Source: an uncultured Neisseria sp.
GTDB lineage: Bacteria > Pseudomonadota > Gammaproteobacteria > Burkholderiales > UBA11063
Assembly: GCA_964652705.1 (NCBI GenBank)
Contig: CAZZAV010000002.1
Coordinates: forward strand, 47,306-111,305
DNA: 64,000 nucleotides
Direction of reading: 5' to 3'
This document shows positions 1,468-32,587 of this stretch, piece by piece; within the stretch, counting starts at the first letter, position 1, and the number at the start of each line of letters is the position of its first letter. The notes beneath the pieces were generated by a model, which searched no databases, had not been told where the DNA came from, and was given only the letters and a program-made list of their open reading frames with translations. A program made the translations under genes and the position numbers.

Positions 1468-3444
1468 ATGAAAGATATTCAACTTTTAAGCTTGTTAAAC
1501 AGAATTCCGCTAGGTCAGCGTGGTGTAGGCGTTTTAGGAGAAAATCTTACCATCTCCACCCTTTCATTAGAGAGGCCAAGTCTTACATTAAAGTTATTGA
1601 GTTCTATTGAAATACATATTAGCGGTTTTAGAGGAAAGATATTAATTGTTGACAATGGGTCAACAAAAGAGACAATTGACATCTTAGAAGAGTATATTAA
1701 AAAAAGCACTCTAAGTATTCGCTTGGTAAAGGCTAAAACAAATCTTGGGGTAGCTGGAGGCAGAAACTATTCTGCTCAATTTGTCGAAACTGATTGGGTC
1801 ATGTTTTTAGATAATGATATTTATATTGAGAATGATTTTTTATCAATACTGCATAATGAAATAGATGTTTTAGGAACTCATTTTATTTCATTGCCCTTGA
1901 AAAATCCTGATGGTACATTTTTTGCTCAGGGTGGAAAAATATTTATTACCAATATTGATGCTAAACAGATTCACATTGGTGGAGGTAATGCAGATTTAGA
2001 GTTAAATCATCCTGAATTATCTTCTTTTTTATTTGGTGGTGCGTCTGTTTTAAATGTACATTCTTTCAAAAAAGTTGGTATGTTCAATCAGGGTATGTTT
2101 ATAGGTTTTGAGGATACAGAATTTTCAATACGACTATGGCAGTTTGGATATAAAGTTGCGACGAGCACAGTTAAATGTTTTATTCATGATCATCCAATTG
2201 CAACAGCAGATGAAGATGTTAATTATGAAAAAAAAAGATTTTCAACAAATCATATTCTTCGGTCAGCAAAAGTTGGAGAATCTAAACACTTTTTTTCTTT
2301 TTTATCACCACATGATATGGAGTGGCTAAACTCTAAACTAGCTAATTATGATGATAATCAGATTGATGGGGCTAAAAATATTCCACATGCGAAAGAAATT
2401 AGTTGTAATAAATTAAAAATAGGTATTGTTCTGGATGTTGTGGACTGGGCATTTGCAAATATTATATTTAATGTTGTTAATTTAAAACAAAGTAAATTTG
2501 AATTTATTGTTGTGCCAGCAAATGATTTTATGTCTTTTGATGGTAATTTAGCTAGAATTATGATGTCTATTGAATCATGCTCAATTGTGCATTTTATGTG
2601 GCGAGCGCATCTTTTTAACTTAGAGGGGATTGTCAAAGATTTTTGCAATTCGAAAAAAATAAGTTATATAGATTTTGAGCTTCGATTTATTAAGTGCAAA
2701 CTTTTTTCAGCTTGTGTTTATGATCATTCGTTAGATCCGAGTGGTGATAAATTTATTTATGATTCATTTGTTAATCTTGTTAAAACTAATTATTATGTTT
2801 CCAGTAATGTGCTTCGCCATAACTATGAACAGATAGATGGTTTACCATCCCCAAGAGCTGTTTGTCCAGATGGTGTTGATCTAAAGCTTTTTAAACCATG
2901 TAATTTATCAAGATTTAATTTACCACAGTTGAATGATCGTGTCATTAAAATTGGCTGGACAGGAAATAGTAAATGGGGAGAAAATGACCATAAAGGTCTT
3001 CATACTATTATTAAGCCTGCAATTGAAAGACTACAATTGGATGGATATTTAGTAAAGCTTGAGATAGCAGATCGAAATATTGTTAAACGTGAACAATATG
3101 ATATGCCTGAGTTTTATAATTCAATTGATATTTATGCTTGTGCTTCGTTAAATGAGGGAACCCCGAATACGGTTCTAGAGTCAATGGCTTGCGGGATTAT
3201 GGTTGTAACCACAGACGTAGGAATAGTACGAGATGCATTAGGACCTAAGCAGCAGCAATATATAGCGGATAGAACAGTTGATGATTTCTATATTAAACTA
3301 AAAACATTATTAGATAATAAAAATCAGTGGTCGGAGTTAGGTAGAGAAAATTTGGAATATATAAAATCATGGGACTGGCCATTAAAAGCACAGCTAATTA
3401 TAGATTATTTTAGTGAATTAGCTCTTTCATTGCAAAAAGGATAA
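1468..3444 (+). CDS. Bifunctional glycosyltransferase (GT2 N-terminal + GT4 C-terminal)
   Basis: GT-A motifs IVDNGS, NLGVAGGRN, FLDND and GFEDTEFS. GT-B motif SLNEGTPNTVLESMACG. Confidence 0.85.
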   Translation: MKDIQLLSLLNRIPLGQRGVGVLGENLTISTLSLERPSLTLKLLSSIEIHISGFRGKILIVDNGSTKETIDILEEYIKKSTLSIRLVKAKTNLGVAGGRNYSAQFVETDWVMFLDNDIYIENDFLSILHNEIDVLGTHFISLPLKNPDGTFFAQGGKIFITNIDAKQIHIGGGNADLELNHPELSSFLFGGASVLNVHSFKKVGMFNQGMFIGFEDTEFSIRLWQFGYKVATSTVKCFIHDHPIATADEDVNYEKKRFSTNHILRSAKVGESKHFFSFLSPHDMEWLNSKLANYDDNQIDGAKNIPHAKEISCNKLKIGIVLDVVDWAFANIIFNVVNLKQSKFEFIVVPANDFMSFDGNLARIMMSIESCSIVHFMWRAHLFNLEGIVKDFCNSKKISYIDFELRFIKCKLFSACVYDHSLDPSGDKFIYDSFVNLVKTNYYVSSNVLRHNYEQIDGLPSPRAVCPDGVDLKLFKPCNLSRFNLPQLNDRVIKIGWTGNSKWGENDHKGLHTIIKPAIERLQLDGYLVKLEIADRNIVKREQYDMPEFYNSIDIYACASLNEGTPNTVLESMACGIMVVTTDVGIVRDALGPKQQQYIADRTVDDFYIKLKTLLDNKNQWSELGRENLEYIKSWDWPLKAQLIIDYFSELALSLQKG

Positions 3445-3447
3445 ATT

Positions 3448-4797
3448 ATGATATTAAAAAATAAATATAAAGTTATTATGCTTGTTATTTGGCTGTTTAT
3501 GGCTTGTTGTTTCTATGCTCTATACTCACCAGGGCTATTATCGCCAGATTCATGGGACCAGTTAAGTCAAGCATTAACTGGAAAATTTAATAATTGGCAA
3601 CCTGCTATTATGCAAATTCTATGGCATTGGTTGATTCCTGTGTTTGGTGTTTCTGCTTTATTGTTGTTTCATGTGGCTCTGTATTTTCTATCATTGATAC
3701 TGTTATCATTTTGGTTTATAAATAGGTTCAGGGTTTTTCCTGTAAGTATTATTTTGTTAGGTCTTTTCCCCACCTCTCTTTATGTGTTAATGTGGGTATG
3801 GAAAGATGTTGGTTTTGCAGTGGTATTGTTTATAATTGTAGTTCAGGTATTGGTTGTTGAAAATAAAAATAAATTTGTACACTGGGTTATATTGTTAATG
3901 TTATTTTGGTATGTGATAAATGTTAGAATTGGGAATTCTTTTGTAGTGTTACCAATTCTATACTATTTAATCAGTAAAAGTTATGTATTTTCAACTGGAG
4001 GTATTAAAAACAGAGTTTATTCATTTTTAACTTCAATAATTATTATCGTATGTAGTCTTGTATTTCAAATGTTAATAAATGCGTACTATGATGTAAAACC
4101 AAATAACGCATCACACCCATATTATATAGATATGGTTGCAACGCTTGTGCAAACTGGAAAACCATCTGCGATTAACGAATTTCCAGATTATTTAATGAAA
4201 GATCCTAAGAAAAAAGATGAGTTGGTAATTTTGTATAAAAAAGATCCCTATTGGGCAGATAATTTTGCTTGGGGTCCCGCTAGTAAGCTGGTTTATCCTA
4301 ATATTGGTTCGAAGGTGGTGGCTCCTTATTTAAGGATTATTTCAGCACACCCGCTAGCATACTTAGAGCACCGTATCTACTTTGGATTTTATTTATTAAT
4401 GACAAAAAGTATTGTTTGGTCTGCTATAAAAACCGAGGATTGTAGCCTAAATGAGTATCAAAAATCAGCGTTAAACAATAATATTAAATATATAAATACT
4501 GAGATACGGGGAAATATGGTAACGGGATTTTTCGATAAATATGTAAACATTTTATCTTTTTTATACATGCCATTAATTCATTTTATATTTGCAGTTATAA
4601 CATTATGCTATTTTACATATAAGAGGCAATTTACCTTAATTAGCGCTATATCAAGTTCGATCTTACTGTATTTTTGTATAATGTTTTTCTTTTGTCCAAT
4701 TATTGGGGAAACTCGTTATTTCTATTGGGTCTATTTATTAAATAATTTTAATATATGGTTATTATATATGCGTTTTAAATATAATATTGCTGTATAG
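3448..4797 (+). CDS. Polytopic membrane protein, probable GT-C glycosyltransferase (GtrX/GtrII-type)
   Basis: Many hydrophobic segments and a first loop SPDSWDQLSQALTG..WQP with acidic residues. It lies directly upstream of GtrA/GtrB homologues. Confidence 0.6.
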   Translation: MILKNKYKVIMLVIWLFMACCFYALYSPGLLSPDSWDQLSQALTGKFNNWQPAIMQILWHWLIPVFGVSALLLFHVALYFLSLILLSFWFINRFRVFPVSIILLGLFPTSLYVLMWVWKDVGFAVVLFIIVVQVLVVENKNKFVHWVILLMLFWYVINVRIGNSFVVLPILYYLISKSYVFSTGGIKNRVYSFLTSIIIIVCSLVFQMLINAYYDVKPNNASHPYYIDMVATLVQTGKPSAINEFPDYLMKDPKKKDELVILYKKDPYWADNFAWGPASKLVYPNIGSKVVAPYLRIISAHPLAYLEHRIYFGFYLLMTKSIVWSAIKTEDCSLNEYQKSALNNNIKYINTEIRGNMVTGFFDKYVNILSFLYMPLIHFIFAVITLCYFTYKRQFTLISAISSSILLYFCIMFFFCPIIGETRYFYWVYLLNNFNIWLLYMRFKYNIAV

Positions 4798-5190
4798 ATG
4801 ACTTATAGTATTTTTAGAGATATCCCAAACTTTATTAAATTTTTATTTATCGGTGGTTTTAATACAGCTGTTTGTATGCTATTATTTTGGCTACTAAATA
4901 GAACTGGCCTGAATTATTTGTTGTCTAGTGGATTGATGAATGTGTTTGGAGTAATCGAGGGTTATATCTTAAATGCTATTCTGCTCTACAAAAGTAAAAT
5001 CAGGTTTAAAGATTTACTGAAATATGGGAATGTGTATTTATTTGCTTTTATTGCAAATTTGTTGCTTATGTACGGATTTGTTACTGGCTTAAATTTGCCG
5101 AAATTGTTTTCTCAGATATTAACTACTGGTTTGTTAACAATAATAAATTATCAAATTATTAAATTATTTGTATTTAAGGTGAAAAACTAA
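4798..5190 (+). CDS. gtrA: GtrA-family undecaprenyl-P-sugar translocase
   Basis: 130 aa with 4 TM segments and FIKFLFIGGFNT at the N-terminus. It is adjacent to the GtrB homologue. Confidence 0.85.
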   Translation: MTYSIFRDIPNFIKFLFIGGFNTAVCMLLFWLLNRTGLNYLLSSGLMNVFGVIEGYILNAILLYKSKIRFKDLLKYGNVYLFAFIANLLLMYGFVTGLNLPKLFSQILTTGLLTIINYQIIKLFVFKVKN

Positions 5191-6815: not shown

Positions 6816-6862
6816 GCTAGTGTAGATTAAGTTATGCTTTTTACATCGAGGTGTGATATTTG

Positions 6863-8776
6863 ATGAGTACAATATTTATTGATTTTTTTGATACGATAGT
6901 GCATCGTGCTATACCACCAGAAGAGGTTAAGAAGCTTTGGGCTAAAATCTTGGCTGTTGATTTAAAACTAGAAGTGGATATTTACCAGCTACGTTTTAAA
7001 ATTGAGGCACAACTTTGTGCGGATAATTTTATCAAGCATCAAGAGAATGAGTTTCGTTATAATGATATGTGCGCTCTGCTATGGAATGATTTGAAAGGAT
7101 TTACTGATTTAAACTTTGAAAGATTTTTAATAATATGCCGTAGTTTAGAGCTGCGAATAGAAAAACAAGTTCAGTATGTAAATAACGATAATGTTAAATT
7201 TTTAATAGATTCTAAAAATAATGGTAAAAAGATTTATTTAATCAGTGACTTTTATTTTGATTTAGCACTATTTGAAGAGTTACTAAAGTTTCATAATTTG
7301 TCTGAATTGTTTAATGGTGTATTTATTTCTAGTGAATATATTGCGTCTAAGCGTAGTGGTAGGTTGTATCAGAAAGTACAAGAAATATTGAACCTTACCT
7401 CTTTTGATAATTCCCTTATGATCGGTGATAATCAAATTGCCGATGTAGTTAATGCTAAACAGGCTGGGTTAAATGTTCATTGGAGTGACGCATCGGTCAA
7501 GCATAAATATTATAGTACTACCTCAGCGACTGAAAACCTTGCATTATTAATTGGTAAGTTTAATTATGCCTATAATGTCAATCAAAAACTAATTTATCCA
7601 GAGTTAGCTTTATCTTTACATTTATTTATTGTTAAATTGGTGAGTGAATTAAAGATAGCTGGTGCAAAAGATGTTTTATTTATGGCTCGCGAAGGTGAAT
7701 TTTTAAAAAAACTATTTGATCAGTATGTATCTTTCACTGGCGATGCTATTCGTTCACATTATTTTTATGTATCGCGCCGATCAACGTTTTTGCCTTCTTT
7801 ATCTTCGCTAGACCAAGAAGACTTTCATGTTTTATTCCGTCAATATATAAACATTTCACCGCGTGAATTTTTATTAAATCTAAATTTTGAGGATATACAA
7901 ATACGCGAATTGCAAAATGTTATTGATTATGATTTTGCAGCTAGAGTAGATAATTTTCCAGAATCAATTGAGTTTCATCAACTCAAGCTTTGTCGTTTAT
8001 TTGGTGAATTATATGAGGATAATCGATTACAACAGCTTCAAAATTTTAACCATTATTTTTCCAGCTTTAATCTTGATTGCAATGAATTATTTATTGTTGA
8101 TGTCGGTTGGAAGGGAAGTATTCAGGATAATTTAGCAAATATCTTTAAAACGCTAAAAATTAATGGATATTACCTAGGCTTAAATATTGCGACAGGTGAG
8201 ACGACAAAGAGTACTAAAAAAGGTTTATTATTTGATCCATTGACAGCATTTGATATTTCATGTTCTAGTTCAATCTATAATGAATGTACTTCATTGTATG
8301 AAGTTATACTGGGTGCATCACACGGCAGTACCAGCAAGTATTTACCAGACGGTAGTGTGGAGTTGCTTGAAAATGAGATTGAGAGGAATTTATTTCATAA
8401 CACTATTCTACCCATTCAGCAAGAAATGTTAAACTATATACGACTAGTCGGTGGTATTTTTGCTTGGTCAAATAAAACTTCAAATGAAATTGAAAATTTT
8501 ATTGTGCGTAATTATGCCAATTTTATTTTTAATCCATCCGCGAAACAAGTTGAGCTGTTTTCCAGTGTCTATCATGTTGAAAGCTTTGGTGTTCATGAGA
8601 CAACTAAATTTATTTCTGGAGGTGGAAGTTTTTTTTCTAGCCTAAAGAAATTTATTAGAGCTCCAAAGAGGTATATAAAGACTTCTTTTTGGACCGCTCA
8701 AAAATTAACTGTAGAGAAGCTAGGTGTTTTGAAACCAATTTATAAATTTTATCGAATGAGAAAGATAGTTAAATGA
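6863..8776 (+). CDS. HAD phosphatase + phosphoribosyltransferase-like two-domain protein, probable ribofuranosyltransferase
   Basis: N-terminal HAD motifs IDFFDT, LISDFY, KRSG and MIGDN..AD. C-terminal FMAREG, VSRRS and a PRPP-loop-like FIVDVGWKGSIQ. The ATG at 6863 follows a GAGG RBS. Confidence 0.65.
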   Translation: MSTIFIDFFDTIVHRAIPPEEVKKLWAKILAVDLKLEVDIYQLRFKIEAQLCADNFIKHQENEFRYNDMCALLWNDLKGFTDLNFERFLIICRSLELRIEKQVQYVNNDNVKFLIDSKNNGKKIYLISDFYFDLALFEELLKFHNLSELFNGVFISSEYIASKRSGRLYQKVQEILNLTSFDNSLMIGDNQIADVVNAKQAGLNVHWSDASVKHKYYSTTSATENLALLIGKFNYAYNVNQKLIYPELALSLHLFIVKLVSELKIAGAKDVLFMAREGEFLKKLFDQYVSFTGDAIRSHYFYVSRRSTFLPSLSSLDQEDFHVLFRQYINISPREFLLNLNFEDIQIRELQNVIDYDFAARVDNFPESIEFHQLKLCRLFGELYEDNRLQQLQNFNHYFSSFNLDCNELFIVDVGWKGSIQDNLANIFKTLKINGYYLGLNIATGETTKSTKKGLLFDPLTAFDISCSSSIYNECTSLYEVILGASHGSTSKYLPDGSVELLENEIERNLFHNTILPIQQEMLNYIRLVGGIFAWSNKTSNEIENFIVRNYANFIFNPSAKQVELFSSVYHVESFGVHETTKFISGGGSFFSSLKKFIRAPKRYIKTSFWTAQKLTVEKLGVLKPIYKFYRMRKIVK

Positions 8777-11231: not shown

Positions 11232-12149
11232 ATGAAAAAAATTATGATAAATATGTCAGTCGTTATGGCGACTTATAATGGTGCTAAATATATATCTGAG
11301 CAATTAGATAGTATCATTGCGCAAACCTTAGCTCCTGATGAAATTATCATTGTTGATGATTGTTCAAACGATAATACTTGGTTGGTTTTGAGTGAATATG
11401 CGCAGCGTTATCCGCAAATTAAACTTTATCGCAATGATGCTAATCTTGGGGTTGTTAAGACTTTTGAGGTTGCATTGATGTTATGTACTGGTGAATTTAT
11501 TGCACTTGCGGATCAAGATGATTATTGGTTACCGAATAAGCTTGAACTATTAATGGCGAATATTGGCAGCAACTGGCTAATCCATAGTGATGCTTATATT
11601 GTGGATGAGAGTCTTAATGTTATTAGTGAATCATATAACAGGATTAAACCTTATCATGACAATAGTTTAACTATGTATTTGCTACGTAACAATGTTACAG
11701 GTTGTACTGTATTACTTCATCGCGATTTATTAAAATTGGCATTACCGTTTCCACCCAATGTGATTATGCACGATCATTATTTGGCATTATGCGCTAAATA
11801 TTATGTTAAACTGATTTATTTGAATTTACCGTTATTGAAATATCGTCAACATGCTCAGAATGTAGTTGGCAGTGGAGAATCTCAGAGTTATTCGGCGATG
11901 GTTGCAAATTACCAAAAATACATTTTATTTTTGGATGGTTTATATTTTGCCAAAATTCAATTTGATCATGTTCAACTGGCTTGTGCTAAAAATTATTTTG
12001 TTTCCATTGTGAATGCACGCATGCCACAACTCGCTACGGTTAGAATGGTTAAGCAGTTATTCGGTTTAAAGAATGTTGTTGCATTATTTTTATATACGTT
12101 ATTTGGTAAGCGCTTTGCAAAATCTATGTTTGATAGAAAGAAAAGGTAG
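11232..12149 (+). CDS. GT2 glycosyltransferase (rhamnosyltransferase-like)
   Basis: SVVMATYNG, IVDDCS, ALADQDD, TGCT, MHDHYL and YRQH. Confidence 0.85.
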   Translation: MKKIMINMSVVMATYNGAKYISEQLDSIIAQTLAPDEIIIVDDCSNDNTWLVLSEYAQRYPQIKLYRNDANLGVVKTFEVALMLCTGEFIALADQDDYWLPNKLELLMANIGSNWLIHSDAYIVDESLNVISESYNRIKPYHDNSLTMYLLRNNVTGCTVLLHRDLLKLALPFPPNVIMHDHYLALCAKYYVKLIYLNLPLLKYRQHAQNVVGSGESQSYSAMVANYQKYILFLDGLYFAKIQFDHVQLACAKNYFVSIVNARMPQLATVRMVKQLFGLKNVVALFLYTLFGKRFAKSMFDRKKR

Positions 12150-12212: not shown

Positions 12213-12986
12213 ATGAAATGTGTGATCTTAGCAGGCGGTTTAGGTACTCGTTTATCTGAGGAGACGGTCTCGCGTCCAAAGCCGATGGTAGAAATTGGTG
12301 GTAAGCCCATTTTATGGCATATTATGAAACTTTATTCCTATTATGGTGTAAATGAATTTATTATTTGTTTGGGATATAAAGGTTATGTAATCAAAGAGTA
12401 TTTTGCGAATTATTTTTTGCATATGTCGGATGTAACTTTTGATATGTCGAATAATCAGATGACGGTGCATAATCAACATGCTGAGGCATGGAAAGTTACA
12501 TTGGTGGATACAGGTGATGAATCTATGACTGGTGGACGTTTGGCACGAGTAAAAGATTATGTTAAAGATGAAGAAGTTTTTTGCTTTACCTATGGCGATG
12601 GCGTTAGTGATGTAAATATTAATGATTTGATTGCCTATCATCAACAGCATGGTAAATTAGCTACGCTCACTGCTGTTACACCACCAGGTAGATTTGGCGC
12701 ATTAGATATTCAAGCTGGTAAAATTCGTAGTTTTAAAGAAAAGCCTAAAGGTGATGGAGCTTTGATTAACGGTGGGTTCTTTGTGTTATCGCCTAAAGTA
12801 ATTGATTTGATTGATGGTGATAGTTGTGTTTGGGAACAAGGACCTTTAGAGAGCCTCGCAAAAAGCTCTGAGTTAATGGCGTTTGATCATGATGGATTTT
12901 GGCAGCCAATGGATACGCTGCGTGATAAGCATCATTTGGAAGAGTTGTGGAGCTCGAATAAAGCGCCGTGGAAGTTATGGAAATGA
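12213..12986 (+). CDS. rfbF: Glucose-1-phosphate cytidylyltransferase
   Basis: [29 protein letters not shown] and [11 protein letters not shown]. Confidence 0.97.
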
Positions 12987-14056
12987 TAAATTCTCAATTT
13001 TGGCAAGGTAAGAAGGTTTTACTAACTGGTTGCACGGGCTTTAAAGGTAGCTGGATGACTATTTGGTTGAATATGCTGGGTGCTAAAGTGTTCGGTTATT
13101 CATTAGCCGCACCAACTAATCCCTCGATGTGGGAAGATATGCAGCTTGAGGCGCTATGTGCTGAGATGTGTTATGCCGATATTCGTGATTATGCTCGGTT
13201 GGAGAGCTATCTTCAGCAGGTGCAGCCTGAGATTGTTATTCATATGGCGGCGCAGCCGTTGGTGCGTTATTCATACCTACATCCACGTGAAACCTATGAA
13301 GTGAATGTAATGGGCACGGTTAATTTACTTGATGCCATTCGTAATACTGGATTTGGGCGTGCCGTGGTAAATGTGACGACTGATAAATGTTATGAAAATA
13401 AAGAATGGCTATGGGCTTATCGTGAAAATGAACCGATGGGTGGGCATGACCCTTATAGCAATAGTAAAGGTTGTTCTGAATTAGTTACATCAGCGTTTAT
13501 TAATTCGTATTTTGGACATTCAGATAGCCAAACGTTTGTTGCCAGTGGCCGTGCGGGTAATGTAATTGGCGGTGGTGATTGGGCCGAAGACCGCTTAATT
13601 CCTGATATCATTCGTAGCTTTAGCAAAAATGAGCCTGTTAGTATTCGTTTTCCAAATGCGGTGCGTCCTTGGCAACATGTGCTTGAACCACTTTCGGGTT
13701 ATTTATTGTTAGCTGAAAAATTATATAACGACAAACAGTATTATGTTGGCGGCTGGAATTTTGGTCCACTTGATAGCGATACCAAAACAGTTGCACAAAT
13801 TGTGGATCAGATGTGTGCTATTTGGGGCGATGTTGCAAGTTGGAGTCGCGATGGGAATGATAATCCACATGAAGCGAATTTATTACGCCTAGATTGTTCC
13901 AAAGCACGAATGTTGCTGAATTGGCAACCAGCTTGGAATAGTCAAATAACTTTAACTAAATTAACTTTATGGTATAAGGCTTATTTTGCAGGGCAGGATA
14001 TGTTAGATTTGAGTAAACAACAAATTAATGAGTATATGAAGGATATGCAATGCTAG
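12983..14056 (+). CDS. rfbG: CDP-glucose 4,6-dehydratase
   Basis: [35 protein letters not shown] and [14 protein letters not shown] overlap with rfbF. Confidence 0.97.
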
Positions 14057-15360
14057 AACAATTGCAAACAGAAATTTTAGATTTAGTGGGTAAATTTGCA
14101 GAGCAAAAATATGTTGCAAAACCATTTATAGCTGGTGAAACGGTTATTCCTCCAGCTGGTAAAGTTATTGGTGAATTAGAGCTTAAGTATATGGTTGAGG
14201 CTTCGTTAGATGGTTGGTTAACCACTGGGCACTTTAATACTAAGTTTGAACAAGGTTTGGCTAAATATTTGAACGTTAAACATTTAATTACGGTTAATTC
14301 TGGTTCATCAGCAAATTTGGTTGCTTTTAGTACCTTGACCTCGTATAAGCTTGGTGAGCGTGCTATAAAGCCTGGGGATGAAGTGATTTCAGTGGCGGCA
14401 GGATTTCCAACGACAATTAATCCAATTCTTCAACAGGGTGCTGTGCCAGTTTTTTTAGATGTTGATATCCCTACTTATAATATTGACGTAACTAAGTTGG
14501 AAGATGCGATTACTTCTAAAACTAAGGCAGTATTTATTGCGCATACTTTAGGCAATCCATTTAACCTAAAAGCTATCCGTGAGATTTGTGATAAATATAA
14601 GTTGTGGCTAATTGAAGATTGTTGTGATGCTCTTGGTTCAAAATATGATGGTAAACGAGTTGGTACTTTCGGTGATATAGGGACCGTTAGTTTTTATCCA
14701 GCTCATCATATAACTATGGGTGAAGGCGGTGCTGTATTTACGAATAATGATGAATTAAAAGTGATCGCTGAATCATTCCGCGACTGGGGGCGTGATTGTT
14801 ATTGTAATCCTGGTTGTGATAATACCTGTGGTAAACGTTATTGTCAACAGCTCGGTAAATTGCCTTTTGGTTATGATCATAAATATACATATTCTCATTT
14901 AGGTTATAATCTTAAAATTACAGATATGCAAGCTGCATGTGGTTTAGCTCAATTGGAACGCCTAGATGGATTTGTAGAGAAACGTAAAGAGAATTTCGAT
15001 TATTTAAAAAATAAATTACAAGAGTGTGCTGAGTTTTTAGTCCTACCTGAGGCAACTGAGAACTCAGAGCCTTCATGGTTTGGTTTCCCGATTACCATTA
15101 AGGAAAATGCTGGCTTTAAGCGTACCGATTTGTTGAATTACCTTGAAGATAATAAAATTGGCACACGGTTACTTTTTGCAGGAAATGTGACTAAACAGCC
15201 TTATATGCAAGGACGCAATTATCGCGTTGTAGGTGAGTTAATTAATTCTGATCGAATTATGAACCAAACTTTTTGGGTTGGAATTTATCCTGGTTTAACT
15301 GAGGAAATGTTAGACTTCACGGCAGAAACTATCAGCCAATTTTGTGGTGTTGGATTCTGA
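14050..15360 (+). CDS. rfbH: CDP-4-keto-6-deoxyglucose 3-dehydratase (E1)
   Basis: [16 protein letters not shown] and [14 protein letters not shown] (His in place of the PLP Lys). Also [14 protein letters not shown] and [14 protein letters not shown]. Confidence 0.96.
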
Positions 15361-15370
15361 AAGTGAATAA

Positions 15371-17149
15371 ATGAGCAAGATAAAAGCATCTGATTATATT
15401 GTTGAATGGTTTAGTAAAAATGGCGTAGACACTGTTTTTGGTTATCAAGGTGGTATGGTAACACATATTGCGGATTCTATAAATAATCATCCTATGGTTA
15501 GCTTTATACAGGCATATCATGAACAAAGTGCCGCTTTTGCGGCAGTTGGTTATGCACGATATAGGAATAGTATAGGTGTAGCTATTGCCACGAGTGGACC
15601 TGGTGCTACAAATATGATAACTGCTATTGCAGATGCTTTTTTTGATTCTGTTCCTGTGATTTTTATTACTGGTCAGGTAAATGCTTATGAATATAAATAT
15701 GATAGACCGATTAGACAGTTGGGGTTTCAAGAAACTAATGTTGTTGATATGGTTAAACCTATAACAAAATACGCTGCACTAGTTGATAAGGTTGAGGATA
15801 TTCCATTAGCCCTTGATAATGCTTTAAAAATTGCTTTGAGTGGCAGAATGGGTCCAGTTTTATTAGATTTGCCTATGAATGTGCAACGAGAGTTTATTAA
15901 TTTAGATGATGTAAGCCAGTGTGCATTTGTATGTTCTGATGAGCAGTTACCGGTATTCAATATCAATATAGATAATATTTTATCTGTAATAAATGAATCA
16001 AGTAAACCGCTTGTGTTAATAGGTGGTGGGGTATATAAAGACAATTGTGCCAAGGAAGTATTTGACTTTCTTAATAAAAATAATTTGCCTTTTATATCCT
16101 CTTTACATGGTAAAAATTCGTGTGATGAAACATCTGACTTATATCTTGGTACGATCGGTTCTTATGGCAATCGGTGTGCTAATATGGCATTAGGAAGTGC
16201 AGACTTGCTAATTGTATTGGGTGCGAGATTAGATGTTCGTCAAACTGGAGGTCTGCTAACTGGTTTTTTGCCACATGGTCAAATTATTCAAGTTGATATA
16301 GATGCCAATGAATTAAACTATGGTAGGGTAATAAATAAAAAATTAAACATAAATACCAACATAAGAAGTTTTATTGAAGCCTTGGAATCAATAGATTTAT
16401 TTGAATATAATCCTTCTTGGGTAAATTATTTAACCAATCTTAAATGCAAATATAATCAACAAAAAGAGATATTAAGAAATATAGACAATAGCTCTCCATA
16501 TAAACTGATGGAACTACTTAATAATACCGCGGAAGCAAATGATATTTTTTGTGCCGATGTTGGGCAGAATCAAATGTGGGCGATGCAAATGCTAAAGTTA
16601 CAAAAAAATCAACAGTTTCATACCTCTGGTGGCCTCGGTTCAATGGGGAGTTGCCTTCCAATCGCTGTAGGTATAGCGTTTGCAAAAAAAGACTCTTCTA
16701 CAGTATATGCAATTAATGGCGATGGTGGTTTGCATATGTCCTTACAAAGTTTGCTTTTAATTAGTCAATATGATTTACCAATTAAAGTTGTGCTCATCAA
16801 TAATAAAGCTCTTGGTATGATTACTCAGTTTCAGGAGTTATATTTTAATAATCAGATGGTTGGTACAAAGTTATCTGGTGGATATGCAGTTCCAAATTTT
16901 TTAGATATCGCAAGATCATATAACCTAAAGTATATTAAAGTTGATGTGACAAATAATCGCGAATTTAGTAATGATGAGTTTAGAGAGTTTTTTGTATCCA
17001 AAAATTGTATTTTAGAGTACGTTATTGATGATTGCAAGGTGTTTCCTAAGTTAGAATTTAATCAACCTAGTTATAATCCTTCACCAGTTTTACCTGAAGA
17101 CGAACTTTTGGATAATATGTTGATTACATCAGCTGAGGTGAATCAATAA
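15371..17149 (+). CDS. ThDP-dependent acetolactate-synthase-like enzyme, YerE-like (branched-chain sugar biosynthesis)
   Basis: Catalytic HEQSAAFAA, TSGPGATN and the ThDP motif GDGG...NN. It lies 10 nt after rfbH, with no AHAS small subunit nearby. Confidence 0.75.
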   Translation: MSKIKASDYIVEWFSKNGVDTVFGYQGGMVTHIADSINNHPMVSFIQAYHEQSAAFAAVGYARYRNSIGVAIATSGPGATNMITAIADAFFDSVPVIFITGQVNAYEYKYDRPIRQLGFQETNVVDMVKPITKYAALVDKVEDIPLALDNALKIALSGRMGPVLLDLPMNVQREFINLDDVSQCAFVCSDEQLPVFNINIDNILSVINESSKPLVLIGGGVYKDNCAKEVFDFLNKNNLPFISSLHGKNSCDETSDLYLGTIGSYGNRCANMALGSADLLIVLGARLDVRQTGGLLTGFLPHGQIIQVDIDANELNYGRVINKKLNINTNIRSFIEALESIDLFEYNPSWVNYLTNLKCKYNQQKEILRNIDNSSPYKLMELLNNTAEANDIFCADVGQNQMWAMQMLKLQKNQQFHTSGGLGSMGSCLPIAVGIAFAKKDSSTVYAINGDGGLHMSLQSLLLISQYDLPIKVVLINNKALGMITQFQELYFNNQMVGTKLSGGYAVPNFLDIARSYNLKYIKVDVTNNREFSNDEFREFFVSKNCILEYVIDDCKVFPKLEFNQPSYNPSPVLPEDELLDNMLITSAEVNQ

Positions 17150-18165
17150 TGGCATATGATGTAAGTTTAGGTAATATTAATTTGACTTTGCTTGCAAGCA
17201 AAAAGATTTTTATCACTGGTGGGACTGGTTTTTTGGGTAAAAATCTGCTGAAATTTTTAACCGATAATGATATTAATCCACATAATGTGACTATTTTAAC
17301 GCGTAATGAGAAGAAATTTAGGCAACAATTCCCAGAATTATCCAATCAAGAATGGCTAAACTTTGAGCAATCAGATATTAGAGAGCTACAGTGGAACAAT
17401 CATGAGTATGATTACTTTATCCATGCTGCAACAAGCGTTATAGATCAAGCAGATTCTGGAACCTTATTTGATGAAATAGTTATAGGAACCAAACAAGCCT
17501 TGATATTTGCTGAATTAGCTGGTGTTAAGAGTTTTATAAATATAAGCTCAGGAGCTGTTTATCAAACTAATTTTTTACTTAAAGGAATAACTGAAAATTC
17601 TCCATTGGTTCATCAATTAGATAATTACAAAAACACTTATGCAATAGCTAAAATAAGTGGCGAACATTTGGCATACTTATCTACGCATAATAAGACAATG
17701 AAAGTTACTACTCTACGGTGCTTTTGTTTTGCTGGTAGATATTTGGAATCAACTCATTTTGCAATAGGAGATTTTGTACAAAAAGCACTTAATCATGAAG
17801 ATATAATTGTACAGTCGGGTAATGGTGTTTATCGCTCTTATTTAACTGGAGCTGATTTGGCAAGACAAATATTTGAAACGTTGGCTTTATCTGAAATTCG
17901 CGCAAATAATTACGAGGTATTTAACCTTGGGTCTGATATTGCAATAAGCTTACCTGATTTGGCACATAAAGTAGTCGCAGTTTTAGGTGGTAAGTCCAAA
18001 GTTACTATACCAAATATAAACCATACAGATATTAACTATTATGTGCCAAATGTTGATAAGCTGCAACATTTGTTAAACAGTGATGTTAGAGCACTAGATT
18101 TAATTATTTTAGAAACTGCACAGTATTATAGCGAATTGTTTTATCAAGTAGGTAAATGGTGCTAA
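17149..18165 (+). CDS. Extended SDR NAD-dependent epimerase/reductase (YerF-like or 4-ketoreductase)
   Basis: ITGGTGFLG, SSGAVY and YAIAK. Translationally coupled to the ThDP gene (TAATG). Confidence 0.8.
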   Translation: MAYDVSLGNINLTLLASKKIFITGGTGFLGKNLLKFLTDNDINPHNVTILTRNEKKFRQQFPELSNQEWLNFEQSDIRELQWNNHEYDYFIHAATSVIDQADSGTLFDEIVIGTKQALIFAELAGVKSFINISSGAVYQTNFLLKGITENSPLVHQLDNYKNTYAIAKISGEHLAYLSTHNKTMKVTTLRCFCFAGRYLESTHFAIGDFVQKALNHEDIIVQSGNGVYRSYLTGADLARQIFETLALSEIRANNYEVFNLGSDIAISLPDLAHKVVAVLGGKSKVTIPNINHTDINYYVPNVDKLQHLLNSDVRALDLIILETAQYYSELFYQVGKWC

Positions 18166-18235
18166 TTAACATTTGGTGAATTTTATATACTTGATCAGTT
18201 AATAAAGCTGTTGATTTTATGAGAAAGGTTAGTTG

Positions 18236-19528
18236 ATGAAGATGCCAAAAACATTATTGATTGCTTCTGCTGGTTGGTCTAACAGAATTATTGCGGCATC
18301 AGTGCAAATTATTTCGATCCCTATCTTTATTCGGCTATTGGGGTTGGATGGTTATGCTGCATTTTCAGTTGTTTCTGGATTCATCTGTTGGTTTGCTTTA
18401 GCTGAGCTTGGTCTTGGTAGTGTTTTACAAAATGAAATTTCTGCACGCCAAGCGAGACATCAAGCATTAGATGGTGTTATTGAGAGACATCTTTCAATAT
18501 TAATTTTTACCACTATATTTTGTATCTTGCTTTATATCCCATTGAGTTTTTTAGTTAATCATTGGTTATCGAATACCTTCAGTTCATATCAGTATTTATT
18601 ATTGATTGCTGGTTGTTTTTATATGTTTTTATTTAACTCGAATGTAGTTTATAAGATATTTTTTGCTAAGCATTGTGGTTATATTAGTTATATTTTTCAG
18701 AGTATCGGTAATTTATTGTGGTTTGGGATTTTATTGTTGCTTACGTTTTGGAGTAAATTAAAGTTTTCTCCTGAACTGATTATTCTTGTAACCCTAATTC
18801 CTCAGATCTGTGTTTCACTTTTTCTGTATACTCGGCTTGAAATAAATTGGAAGAATGTTTGTAGTTTTCCTTCAGTTACTCTTTTTCAAGAGTACAAATC
18901 CATACTAAAAATGTCTATGAATTTTTTTTGGGTTAGCTTGATGTCCAATTTTGTTTTGGGTGTTGATTATTTTTTTATTGCAAAATTTTTAAACCAACAT
19001 GACATTGTAACCTACAATATTATTAATAAAATATACATTTTTGTTGCTTTTGGTTATAGCGTTTTATTAGCATCATTGTGGCCAATTTTATCCGAGTTAT
19101 ATGTTATTGGCGAAAAGTCTAGCTACAGGAAAGCTAATCGTACTTTAGTCAAATATATATTTTCTGCATTTTTTTACGTAATTTTTGCGTCTTCATTAAT
19201 TATAATATTTCGTGGTTATATCTCTTCAATCTTAGCTAAGTCAGCTATTGAGATATCAGTTCAATTAATTGTTTTATTCTGTGTATACTATTGTATTCGT
19301 GTTATCGTCGATTTCATTTGTGTAGCATTACAAAGTCGTGGTCAAGTGAGGGTTTTAATGGTAACAGCGCCACTACAAGCAATAGCAACCATTTTATTGA
19401 TGAAGGCTTTTGTGAATAAATATGCACTAATGGGAATTATGTATGCTTTAATACTGGGTTTTATTTTAACTGCATTTTGGATCTTACCAGTTTCTTATTT
19501 TCGGGGGAATAACCGTGCAACAGAATAA
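18236..19528 (+). CDS. wzx: Wzx O-unit flippase, RfbX type
   Basis: About 12 TM segments. LGSVLQNEIS, VDYFFIA, LWPILSEL and IRVIVD..LQS recall the Salmonella group B RfbX as I remember it. Confidence 0.8.
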   Translation: MKMPKTLLIASAGWSNRIIAASVQIISIPIFIRLLGLDGYAAFSVVSGFICWFALAELGLGSVLQNEISARQARHQALDGVIERHLSILIFTTIFCILLYIPLSFLVNHWLSNTFSSYQYLLLIAGCFYMFLFNSNVVYKIFFAKHCGYISYIFQSIGNLLWFGILLLLTFWSKLKFSPELIILVTLIPQICVSLFLYTRLEINWKNVCSFPSVTLFQEYKSILKMSMNFFWVSLMSNFVLGVDYFFIAKFLNQHDIVTYNIINKIYIFVAFGYSVLLASLWPILSELYVIGEKSSYRKANRTLVKYIFSAFFYVIFASSLIIIFRGYISSILAKSAIEISVQLIVLFCVYYCIRVIVDFICVALQSRGQVRVLMVTAPLQAIATILLMKAFVNKYALMGIMYALILGFILTAFWILPVSYFRGNNRATE

Positions 19529-20513
19529 AAAAATACTTTCAATTGCTATTCCCACTTACAATCGTAGTCATTATTTGGAGTTATTATTAGCATCGATACT
19601 TAGACAATATGACAGTTGTGCTTCATTAATTGAAATTATCATTTCGGATAATGCTTCAACTGATACAACTAATTTGGTTGTAAATAAGTATATTGAATAC
19701 GGACTAGAGATTCAATATGTACGTAATTCAAATAATTTAGGCGCCGATAGAAATATTGCTCAAGCTTTTATGTTGTCTTCATGTGAGTATGTTTGGGTTA
19801 TGGGTGATGATGATTATTTCTTAGATAAAGCCATTATTACTGTTTTAGATCTTATTCAAAATAATAGTAAAACTCCGCTTGGTATTATTTATCTTAATGC
19901 TACATCAGATAAAGTTGATATTAATTCTCAGGTCGGAGAAATTGAGTTTCAACAAAATATTTCTAGGGATGAGTTTGTAAAAAAAATAAACGTGTTTTTA
20001 ACTTTTATTTCTGGTAATGTGGTTAATAAAAAGATATTTTTGAATAATTATAATATAGAATCAATTAATCAATACATGGATACAAACTTGGTACAGTTGG
20101 GGTGGATATATCGGATAATTATTAATAGTAATAATTTTGCAATAATTGATACAAAGCTTTTATTTGCTCAGGCTGATAATTCTGGTGGATATAACATATT
20201 TAATGTTTTTGCCGTACATCAATCTAAAATTGCTCGTGCTGAGTTAAATAAATTTCCTAAGTATATAGCGTGGATTGAAAAAGGAACTATGTTGAAGTGT
20301 TTTCCTGTCTGGATTTATCTTCATTTATGTGAGGGATTAACTACATTTGATAAGTATGAGGTAGATATCTTTCAGGTTCTACAGCGATCTTACGGGAAGT
20401 ATTATGAGTATTGGATTTTTATTTATCCAATGAAGTTTATGCCAAATGTAATTCGGCGTATATTTAAAAAGATAGTTGTTTCTTTTTGGAATTTTAGTGT
20501 ACGATTCAGATAG
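19515..20513 (+). CDS. GT2 glycosyltransferase, RfbV/WbaV-like (candidate dideoxy/branched-sugar transferase)
   Basis: IAIPTYNR, ISDNASTD, NLGADRN and WVMGDDD. GTG start overlapping wzx. Confidence 0.7.
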   Translation: MQQNKKILSIAIPTYNRSHYLELLLASILRQYDSCASLIEIIISDNASTDTTNLVVNKYIEYGLEIQYVRNSNNLGADRNIAQAFMLSSCEYVWVMGDDDYFLDKAIITVLDLIQNNSKTPLGIIYLNATSDKVDINSQVGEIEFQQNISRDEFVKKINVFLTFISGNVVNKKIFLNNYNIESINQYMDTNLVQLGWIYRIIINSNNFAIIDTKLLFAQADNSGGYNIFNVFAVHQSKIARAELNKFPKYIAWIEKGTMLKCFPVWIYLHLCEGLTTFDKYEVDIFQVLQRSYGKYYEYWIFIYPMKFMPNVIRRIFKKIVVSFWNFSVRFR

Positions 20514-31260: not shown

Positions 31261-32196
31261 ATGCTGGTAAATTCACGCATAGCATTAGTTATTCCTTGTT
31301 ATAACGAAGAAATTACGATTGGTACAGTAATTGATGATGCGAAAAAATATGCACCACAAGCTGAGATTTATGTAATTGATAATAATTCTTCAGATGCTAC
31401 GGCTGAAATTGCTCGAGCACGTGGTGCTAACGTTATTCATGAATATAAAGTTGGTAAAGCATATGCGATTAAAACTGCATTTCGAGTTATTGATGCAGAT
31501 ATTTATGTAATGATTGATGGCGATGATACTTACCCACTTGATCAAATTGACAAAATTATCGAACCAGTTGCCGCTGGTCGTGCGGATATGTCGGTCGGTG
31601 ATCGTCATTCTCTGGGGCATTATAGTGCTGAAAATACCCGTAAATTTCATGGTTTTGGTAATGGCTTAGTAAAAAAGACTATTAATTTGTTTTTTGCTGC
31701 TAAGCTAAATGATATTTTATCTGGTTATCGTGCATTTAGTCGCAGTTTTGTAAAGAATTATCCATTGATTTGTGAGGGATTTGAAATTGAGGCTGATATG
31801 ACGATTCATGCTCTTCATTATGACTATAAAGTGCTAGAAGTTCCAATTACTTTCCAAGAACGCCCGGATGGCTCTGAGTCTAAGTTAAATACCTACAGTG
31901 ATGGAATTAAGATTATGAGTTTAATTGTTGAATTGTATAAAGATAATCGCCCATTAGCGTTCTTTTCAATTTTCTCAGGAATTATCTTTCTTTTTTCATT
32001 GATAAGCGGGGGTGTAGTTATTGATGAGTTTTTAAAAACCCAATACATTACACATGTTCCGTTGGCAATATTGAGTTCTTCGAGCTTTGTTTTAGCGATT
32101 TTGCTTTTTATTAGTGGTTTAATATTAGATACCTTAGTTAAGCAAGATAAGAAAAATCATGCATTACGCTTACTTAGTGACGGTAATGTTCGTTAA
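31261..32196 (+). CDS. gtrB: GtrB/DPM1-like polyprenol-phosphate glycosyltransferase, second copy
   Basis: IPCYNEE, IDNNSSD, IDGDDTY and DILSGYRAF. Strongly similar to 5190-6143. GGAG RBS before ATG 31261. Confidence 0.85.
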   Translation: MLVNSRIALVIPCYNEEITIGTVIDDAKKYAPQAEIYVIDNNSSDATAEIARARGANVIHEYKVGKAYAIKTAFRVIDADIYVMIDGDDTYPLDQIDKIIEPVAAGRADMSVGDRHSLGHYSAENTRKFHGFGNGLVKKTINLFFAAKLNDILSGYRAFSRSFVKNYPLICEGFEIEADMTIHALHYDYKVLEVPITFQERPDGSESKLNTYSDGIKIMSLIVELYKDNRPLAFFSIFSGIIFLFSLISGGVVIDEFLKTQYITHVPLAILSSSSFVLAILLFISGLILDTLVKQDKKNHALRLLSDGNVR

Positions 32197-32587
32197 GTTT
32201 CTGCAATCAAGGTTTTTTAAATTTTTAATCTCCGGTGGTTTAAATACACTAATTTGTCTATTGTTATACTGGATTCTAATTCATAATCAGGTTAATTATA
32301 TTTTTGCAAGTACACTGATGTTTATTTTTGGTGTGATTGAAGGGTATATTCTTAGCGCAATTTTCATTTTTAAACATAAGATAAATTTCTTACATATGGT
32401 GAAGTATACGAGTGTTTATATTAGTTCGTATATTTTAAATATTGCTATTTTAGCGATTGGTGTTGAATTAATTGGACTTAGCCATTTTATGTCGCAGGTG
32501 GTTACTTCGGCATTAGTTGCGGTACTTAATTATTTCTTGGTTAAAATTTTTGTTTTTAAGCAAAAGACAGCAAATGACTTCAAATAA
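32186..32587 (+). CDS. gtrA: GtrA-family translocase, second copy
   Basis: FFKFLISGGLNT and FGVIEGYIL, both shared with 4798-5190. Confidence 0.85.
   Translation: MFVKFLQSRFFKFLISGGLNTLICLLLYWILIHNQVNYIFASTLMFIFGVIEGYILSAIFIFKHKINFLHMVKYTSVYISSYILNIAILAIGVELIGLSHFMSQVVTSALVAVLNYFLVKIFVFKQKTANDFK

Follow-up and report, generated by a model that had tools for sequence, protein, structure and literature searches.

A predicted pathway to a CDP-activated C4-branched 3,6-dideoxyhexose in an O-antigen locus of an uncultured Neisseria sp.

The window analysed here is a 64,000-nucleotide stretch from an uncultured Neisseria sp. (assembly GCA_964652705.1, contig CAZZAV010000002.1, positions 47,306 to 111,305), in which five same-direction open reading frames (ORFs) occupy positions 12213–18165 of the forward strand with almost no space between them. 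They comprise rfbF, rfbG and rfbH, a gene for a YerE-like thiamine diphosphate (ThDP)-dependent enzyme and a gene for an extended short-chain dehydrogenase/reductase (SDR). This module probably makes a cytidine diphosphate (CDP)-activated 4-C-(1-hydroxyalkyl)-3,6-dideoxyhexose as part of an O-antigen/lipopolysaccharide (LPS) operon; the most likely product is yersiniose, which bears a hydroxyethyl branch, or a stereoisomer of this sugar. The proposal is based on gene identities, family placement, synteny and catalytic motifs, from which we infer the chemical steps, the donor, the cofactor, the source of the E3 reductase and the transferase. The module is a new example of an already known pathway.

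The original prediction described rfbFGH, a gene resembling acetohydroxyacid synthase (AHAS) and an SDR gene, and all five ORFs are found at the positions that it claimed. The two junctions that it singled out were read directly. The TGA stop of rfbH ends at 15360 and the ATG of the ThDP enzyme gene is at 15371, which leaves the 10 nt that had been reported. The TAA stop of the ThDP enzyme gene and the ATG start of the SDR gene share one nucleotide (TAATG), and the SDR is thus translationally coupled to the ThDP enzyme gene. The five genes are as follows.

12213..12986, forward strand: rfbF/ddhA, glucose-1-phosphate cytidylyltransferase, which makes CDP-glucose (TIGR02623, 475 bits, cut-off 300)
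12968..14056, forward strand: rfbG/ddhB, CDP-glucose 4,6-dehydratase (TIGR02622, 502 bits, cut-off 278)
14050..15360, forward strand: rfbH/ddhC (E1), CDP-6-deoxy-L-threo-D-glycero-4-hexulose 3-dehydrase of the Fe-S type (NF011936, 757 bits, cut-off 423)
15371..17149, forward strand: YerE-like ThDP-dependent carboligase, proposed C4 branching enzyme, 592 amino acids (PF02776, PF00205, PF02775)
17149..18165, forward strand: extended SDR, proposed NADPH-dependent branch ketoreductase, a functional analogue of YerF and not an orthologue, 338 amino acids (PF01370)

In the proposed pathway, RfbF would form CDP-glucose and RfbG would convert it to CDP-4-keto-6-deoxyglucose. RfbH (E1, with pyridoxamine phosphate and a [2Fe-2S] cluster) would remove the C3 hydroxyl to yield CDP-4-keto-3,6-dideoxyglucose, with electrons supplied via a reductase encoded elsewhere. 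The YerE-like enzyme would decarboxylate a 2-oxo acid, for which pyruvate is the most likely candidate in a cluster that lacks an aldolase gene, and add the activated aldehyde at the C4 ketone, which would generate a tertiary alcohol bearing an acyl branch. The SDR would then reduce the branch ketone, probably with NADPH, and a GT2 glycosyltransferase of the cluster would transfer the branched sugar.

The yersiniose A pathway of Yersinia pseudotuberculosis O:6 (ddhDABC-yerE-yerF) provides a reference for this arrangement. Its gene order is also found in Yersinia vastinensis (locus L026), in which ddhD-ddhA-ddhB-ddhC is followed by a YerE orthologue and then by a 310-amino-acid SDR that is taken as YerF by position. 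As in Yersinia, the window contains DdhA, DdhB and DdhC orthologues, a YerE-like gene directly after ddhC and then an extended SDR. Unlike in Yersinia, the window cluster lacks ddhD, its ThDP enzyme belongs to another subclade and its reductase is not a YerF orthologue. The yersiniose-type pathway that had been predicted is therefore upheld in kind, with a YerE-like enzyme, rfbFGH, a coupled reductase and no aldolase, but it departs from the prediction in that the SDR is not YerF and the cluster contains no E3.

The ThDP-dependent enzyme

The ThDP enzyme scores at most 422 bits against the NCBIfam models of AHAS, which is under every AHAS cut-off (538–738). Its best match in the PDB is 5AHK, with 359 bits over residues 2–567, whereas all AHAS structures score 283 bits or less. 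5AHK, which is named acetolactate synthase II in its deposit, corresponds to PpYerE of Pseudomonas protegens (Hampel et al. 2018, as cited in PMC12247030). The window enzyme is approximately 36% identical to PpYerE, 37–38% identical to the Yersinia YerE orthologue and approximately 33–35% identical to biosynthetic AHAS. Another structure, 8RPH (229 bits), may be JanthE. The three-domain fold, the catalytic Glu, the GDG motif and the YerE-type residues are shared with PpYerE, and the ThDP decarboxylase superfamily and its domain order are shared with the AHAS enzymes IlvB, IlvI and IlvG.

A maximum-likelihood tree of 39 sequences (LG+C20, ultrafast bootstrap and SH-aLRT), which does not include ErwE, MMAR_2332, MyGE or JanthE, splits a YerE-like clade from an AHAS clade at 100/100, and a quick tree concurs. 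The YerE-like clade takes in the window enzyme, PpYerE and the enzyme of Y. vastinensis, and the window genome's own AHAS is placed in the AHAS clade. The comparison of the protein with YerE and AHAS in a tree, which had been proposed as a check, thus groups it with YerE at full support. In the family alignment, six of the six columns that are diagnostic for YerE versus AHAS are in the YerE state, in which K109, G118, Y265, L287, Q291 and F487 stand in place of the G, A, H, F, V and W of AHAS. The AHAS motif RFDDRVTG reads RLDVRQTG in the window enzyme, and the conserved Trp of the AHAS motif GMVxQWQ is a Phe (F487). The catalytic Glu (E51) is intact, as is the ThDP motif GDG-x26-NN (G450-D451-G452 and N477-N478); both are invariant in the family alignment.

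A canonical AHAS large subunit is encoded on another contig of the genome (C5:12629–14290; 699 bits, above the cut-off). It is directly followed by a small-subunit-like gene (C5:14339–14572), a 91-amino-acid frame that scores 45.5 bits against TIGR00119 (cut-off 56.9). This is the sole TIGR00119 match in the genome, and no AHAS small subunit lies near the ThDP gene, in agreement with the earlier statement that ilvH and ilvN are missing there. A role of the ThDP enzyme as an additional AHAS was considered and rejected. Unlike AHAS, it lies below the equivalog cut-offs, adjoins no small subunit, belongs to a separate 100/100 clade and carries Phe for Trp among its six diagnostic residues, and the genome has its AHAS on C5. 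By these sequence criteria the enzyme is YerE-like and not a housekeeping acetolactate synthase, and the earlier identification of the AHAS-like gene with YerE is borne out by the PDB ranking, the tree, the diagnostic residues and the rfbFGH context.

Within the YerE-like clade, the window enzyme is part of an 11-member subclade (100/100), the metagenomic homologues of which are labelled Burkholderiales, Bacteroidia, Paludibacter and Cetobacterium. Unlike the window enzyme, PpYerE groups with Yersinia YerE, and together with the enzyme of the betaproteobacterial genome G219 they constitute a separate subclade. Three more AHAS-like ThDP enzymes are encoded in the window's genome (C22:14641–16260, C1:184300–185964 and C2:111862–113436), with 300, 279 and 69 bits to TIGR00118, respectively. 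Their branches are very long and belong to neither the AHAS nor the YerE-like clade, and the gene on C2 begins approximately 560 nt beyond the end of the window.

The acceptor pathway and the reductase

RfbF, RfbG and RfbH are 72%, 56% and 67–68% identical, respectively, to the DdhA, DdhB and DdhC orthologues of Y. vastinensis. RfbH keeps His220, which replaces the lysine that binds pyridoxal phosphate, and Cys193, Cys251, Cys253 and Cys261 of the [2Fe-2S] motif (Yersinia numbering). The residue numbers are those established for the Yersinia E1, and they coincide with cysteines of the Yersinia orthologue. Because the His and the four Fe-S cysteines are kept, RfbH is predicted to be a genuine E1 and thus to depend on an electron donor. 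Judged by these identities, RfbF, RfbG and RfbH are assigned as the genes that make the YerE acceptor, CDP-4-keto-3,6-dideoxyglucose. Two unlinked 2Fe-2S/FNR reductases with the E3 layout are encoded elsewhere in the genome (C37:9670–10650, forward strand, and C21:16501–17484, reverse strand). They are 63% identical to each other, and each aligns with Yersinia DdhD along its entire length at 34–35% identity, although the BenC and MmoC reductases match equally well. It is plausible that the E3 function is provided in trans from elsewhere in the genome. In the metagenomic locus L109, a shorter FNR-like gene (229 amino acids, no ferredoxin domain) lies between the rfbH-like gene and the SDR.

The SDR contains a GxxGxxG motif and an intact catalytic triad (S134, Y164 and K168). 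Its β2 segment, VTILTRN, has an Arg and no acidic residue. Under the usual cofactor rules of SDRs, this combination favours NADPH, which suggests that the predicted reduction is NADPH-dependent. The best PDB match of the SDR is 8VR2, and the second (8V4G, 41 bits) is the NADPH-dependent CDP-6-D-fructose reductase of Campylobacter jejuni (PMC10918830). The reductase of C. jejuni HS:5 (8V4G/8V4H) is also an extended SDR that reduces a ketone on a CDP-linked sugar with NADPH, but it is distant from the window SDR and has another substrate. A role resembling that of a tyvelose epimerase was rejected, since no CDP-tyvelose 2-epimerase structure was found among the PDB matches and the β2 Arg favours NADPH reduction.

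The function that we propose for the SDR comes primarily from its gene neighbourhoods. With the SDRs that adjoin ThDP homologues, it shares 66% identity in L096 and 48% in L098. The close family is small: among 5.8 billion proteins, approximately 25 clusters are at least 45% identical to it, and the next ones are no more than 37% identical. Distant homologues (34–40% identity) have a ThDP-dependent enzyme directly adjacent in all three contigs examined (L108, L109 and L110), where they sit among nucleotide-sugar dehydratase, DegT-family or cytidylyltransferase genes. The L110 homologue adjoins a YerE-like enzyme, and those of L108 (2661–8788) and L109 (670–7328) lie beside a split transketolase (Transketolase_N and Transket_pyr/C). 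The SDR lineage therefore accompanies ThDP enzymes of two superfamilies, the common outcome of which is an acyl-branched keto product. A branch ketoreductase is the most economical reading of this association, and the C1' ketone of the branch would accordingly be the substrate of the SDR.

The L108 and L109 clusters have the appearance of cell-surface glycan loci in which sugars are branched by a transketolase-type system. Besides a cytidylyltransferase, a 4,6-dehydratase and, in part, a DegT-family gene, these transketolase clusters also carry GtrA-GT2 or Wzx genes, and the L108 contig carries P0311, which is labelled Candidatus Rickettsiella isopodorum by one source. In L110, the DegT/E1-like gene (2558–4225) was called as a 555-amino-acid protein with an N-terminal PemK toxin domain and is near genes for 23S-rRNA intervening-sequence proteins and an ISL3 transposase; the call may be a gene-calling artefact or reflect a rearranged locus.

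In two other genomes, the SDR occurs in larger proteins. In G273, which belongs to the same genus, it is fused to a GT2 domain (L106:5935–7953, reverse strand; 672 amino acids), followed by GtrA and a large membrane protein of 553 amino acids without a Pfam match. In G190, a homologue that is 69% identical (C126:14266–15240) lies within a 683-amino-acid frame on a contig other than that of the G190 rfbFGH-ThDP genes. The SDR-GT2 fusions would tie the SDR to the last step before sugar transfer, and the combination with GtrA in G273 suggests that the branched sugar is loaded onto polyprenyl phosphate in the Gtr style.

The donor, the product and competing explanations

No aldolase was found among the ORFs of at least 150 amino acids scanned in the LPS part of the window. 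In clusters for sugars with longer branches, the 2-oxo acid donor is assembled by an aldolase that the cluster itself encodes (ErwI/ErwJ, MMAR_2331 and MygI; PMC9306805), and under this scheme the lack of an aldolase points to a short, pyruvate-derived C2 branch as the default. The ErwE/ErwF (erwiniose), MMAR_2332 and MyGE clusters resemble the window in that genes for CDP-4-keto-3,6-dideoxyglucose are combined with a ThDP carboligase and an NAD(P)H reductase (PMC9306805). Unlike the window, they carry the aldolase, with or without an acetaldehyde dehydrogenase, to build a long donor.

Several observations weigh against a yersiniose-type module. The ThDP enzyme is only 37–38% identical to a YerE of the characterised type and its subclade contains no characterised member in the tree, so that the donor specificity cannot be read from the sequence; the same applies to the branch length and the stereochemistry. 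ErwE, which is itself a YerE-like enzyme, rejects pyruvate (PMC9306805). The SDR does not behave as an orthologue of Yersinia YerF, with 33 bits and 30% identity over 118 residues, or approximately 19% in a multiple alignment. For comparison, Yersinia YerF and the YerF-type protein beside the G219 enzyme are 47% identical. On this evidence the SDR is assigned to a reductase lineage different from that of YerF. Finally, E3 (ddhD/rfbI/ascD) is absent, with no Fer2/FNR gene in the LPS part of the window (1–32 kb). Most related cassettes also lack E3, and among those fetched only that of Y. vastinensis has a full E3, adjoining ddhA. Fer2-FNR genes (one or two per genome) are present in seven of seven genomes of the genus, including those without a YerE-like match, which argues that none of them is a dedicated E3.

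The module could also make a branched 3,6-dideoxyhexose that has not yet been described, either with another branch length or oxidation state, derived from a non-pyruvate donor, or with another configuration at the carbinol. Such a sugar would come from the pairing of a YerE subclade without a characterised member with a reductase lineage unrelated to YerF, which also serves the transketolase-type branching systems, and we put the proposal forward tentatively. In its specific form, the same pathway would use 2-oxobutyrate, hydroxypyruvate or another common 2-oxo acid, or would reduce the branch with the opposite stereochemistry, to yield an undescribed analogue or stereoisomer of yersiniose A. 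Such an outcome would agree with the distance of the ThDP subclade from YerE and with the separate origin of the reductase, and characterised YerE-like enzymes vary widely in their donor range (PMC9306805, PMC12247030). However, the cluster contains neither an aldolase nor another donor-supplying gene and the enzymes that founded the family use pyruvate by default, and we regard this specific form as rather unlikely.

The missing E3 gene raises a second alternative, in which C3 deoxygenation does not take place. The ThDP enzyme would then branch CDP-4-keto-6-deoxyglucose to produce a 4-C-branched 6-deoxyhexose, or the module would be inactive. A Bacillota cassette (L016) that consists of rfbF, rfbG, the ThDP gene and the SDR, with no rfbH on its 7.4-kb contig, is in line with the former. 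In the window, by contrast, rfbH is intact, 67% identical to Yersinia DdhC and equipped with all cofactor ligands. The gene is also kept in most of the cassettes that lack E3, which suggests selection for its function, and the genome encodes two Fer2-FNR reductases with the domain layout of E3. Moreover, unrelated reductases can stand in for E3 in vitro. Loss of the deoxygenation step is thus very improbable. Least credible of all is an SDR that acts as a C4 ketoreductase of the paratose/abequose synthase type, with a ThDP enzyme that does something unrelated, for example the synthesis of acetolactate or acetoin. In its favour, reductases of both types belong to the extended SDRs, and rfbJ of Salmonella is likewise sited after rfbH. 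Against it, the ThDP enzyme is clearly YerE-like in a genome with its own AHAS, the SDR lineage accompanies ThDP branching enzymes, including those of the transketolase type, across distant taxa, and a C4 reductase would destroy the YerE acceptor.

Locus context, distribution and significance

The 32 kb around the module constitute an LPS/O-antigen locus, with many GT1 and GT2 glycosyltransferases, an initiating transferase of the WbaP type, an O-antigen ligase, a heptosyltransferase and acyltransferases. A promoter and terminator scan of the window gave no signal beyond the chance level, in keeping with a single long operon. The GC content at third codon positions is 0.22–0.34 in the cassette and overlaps that of the three housekeeping genes checked (0.24–0.32), so that composition shows no sign of recent transfer. 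Three neighbouring genes bear on the export or transfer of the sugar.

11232..12149, forward strand: GT2 glycosyltransferase, alternative transferase candidate, 63 nt upstream of rfbF (PF00535, 104 bits)
18233..19528, forward strand: polytopic membrane protein, possibly a flippase of the Wzx type, 431 amino acids (12 transmembrane-like segments)
19515..20513, forward strand: GT2 glycosyltransferase, which may be the best candidate transferase for the branched sugar (PF00535)

The membrane protein at 18233–19528 has no Pfam match even at an E-value of 0.01. It shows only a weak similarity (19 bits) to an ORF of L105 that is positioned like the PF01943-bearing gene (Wzx family) of the parallel locus L096. 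Among the fetched loci, the GT2 protein at 19515–20513 best matches the GT2 proteins that flank the cassettes in L016 (92 bits) and L096 (32 bits), and that at 11232–12149 is weakly similar to cassette-adjacent GT2 genes (17–40 bits). Apart from the 92-bit match to L016, the GT2 similarities are weak, and the glycosyltransferase for the branched sugar is not assignable by homology. The ORFs without a Pfam match include a second polytopic membrane protein (3448–4797) and a protein with a single transmembrane-like segment (6860–8776). Two GtrA-family ORFs (4798–5187 and 32159–32584) match the GtrA encoded after the SDR-GT2 fusion in G273, with 94 and 86 bits, respectively; either could offer a route for the branched sugar, with no specific link to it.

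The genome, which is that of the window's assembly, comprises 2.46 Mb in 99 contigs and is 99.9% complete. Its GC content is 34.8%, and the best named relatives of its PheS are metagenome-assembled genomes (MAGs) of Burkholderiales and Neisseriaceae (approximately 80% identity), which fits the description of the organism as a low-GC betaproteobacterium. The set of rfbF, rfbG, rfbH, ThDP and SDR genes recurs in varying order in L096–L100, L106 and L021, and a YerE-like gene with nucleotide-sugar genes is also found in L107 and L026. A scan of genome contigs with the YerE family alignment, which selected generic ThDP motifs, gave at least 80 loci; of the 80 listed, approximately 10 are YerE-like and most are AHAS, and Pectobacterium ErwE, Pseudomonas protegens and the window's own record are not among them. 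In an even sample of the order, a YerE-like gene (E ≤1e-110) was detected in 4 of 301 genomes, namely the window genome, two of the six congeneric genomes (64% and 60% identity) and a member of another family (41%). The PheS relatives reach 85–93% identity, and the cassette is thus far more divergent than housekeeping genes. It also occupies differing chromosomal sites and is located directly upstream of rplN in G190 and L096. Divergence combined with differing sites is a pattern typical of O-antigen diversity. In G190 (L105:4003–9575), rfbF-rfbG-rfbH-ThDP is followed by approximately 190 nt to rplN with no SDR between them, and in the near-identical metagenomic locus L096 the SDR lies between the ThDP gene and rplN.

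The description of such sugars as rare is overstated at the gene level, given that 119 other protein clusters are at least 50% identical to the window ThDP enzyme. A literature survey predicted more than 200 YerE-like clusters (Krug et al. 2024, as cited in PMC12247030). The demand for YerE-like enzymes as biocatalysts stems from their ability to extend unactivated ketones by carbon units, with chiral tertiary alcohols as the products. Those characterised come from few clades, and the window enzyme represents a large subclade without a characterised member (MAGs of Burkholderiales, Bacteroidia and Cetobacterium). The substrate pathway that accompanies it is compact and co-transcribed and should be easily reconstituted. 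How yersiniose-type sugars undergo stereospecific reduction is still poorly characterised (PMC4753412), which makes an SDR distinct from YerF a useful candidate. The points of interest are the YerE subclade, the reductase lineage that is common to transketolase-type clusters and the SDR-GT2 fusions in congeners. For the organism, the module suggests that the O-antigen probably bears an unusual branched sugar, as an instance of ordinary serotype variation.

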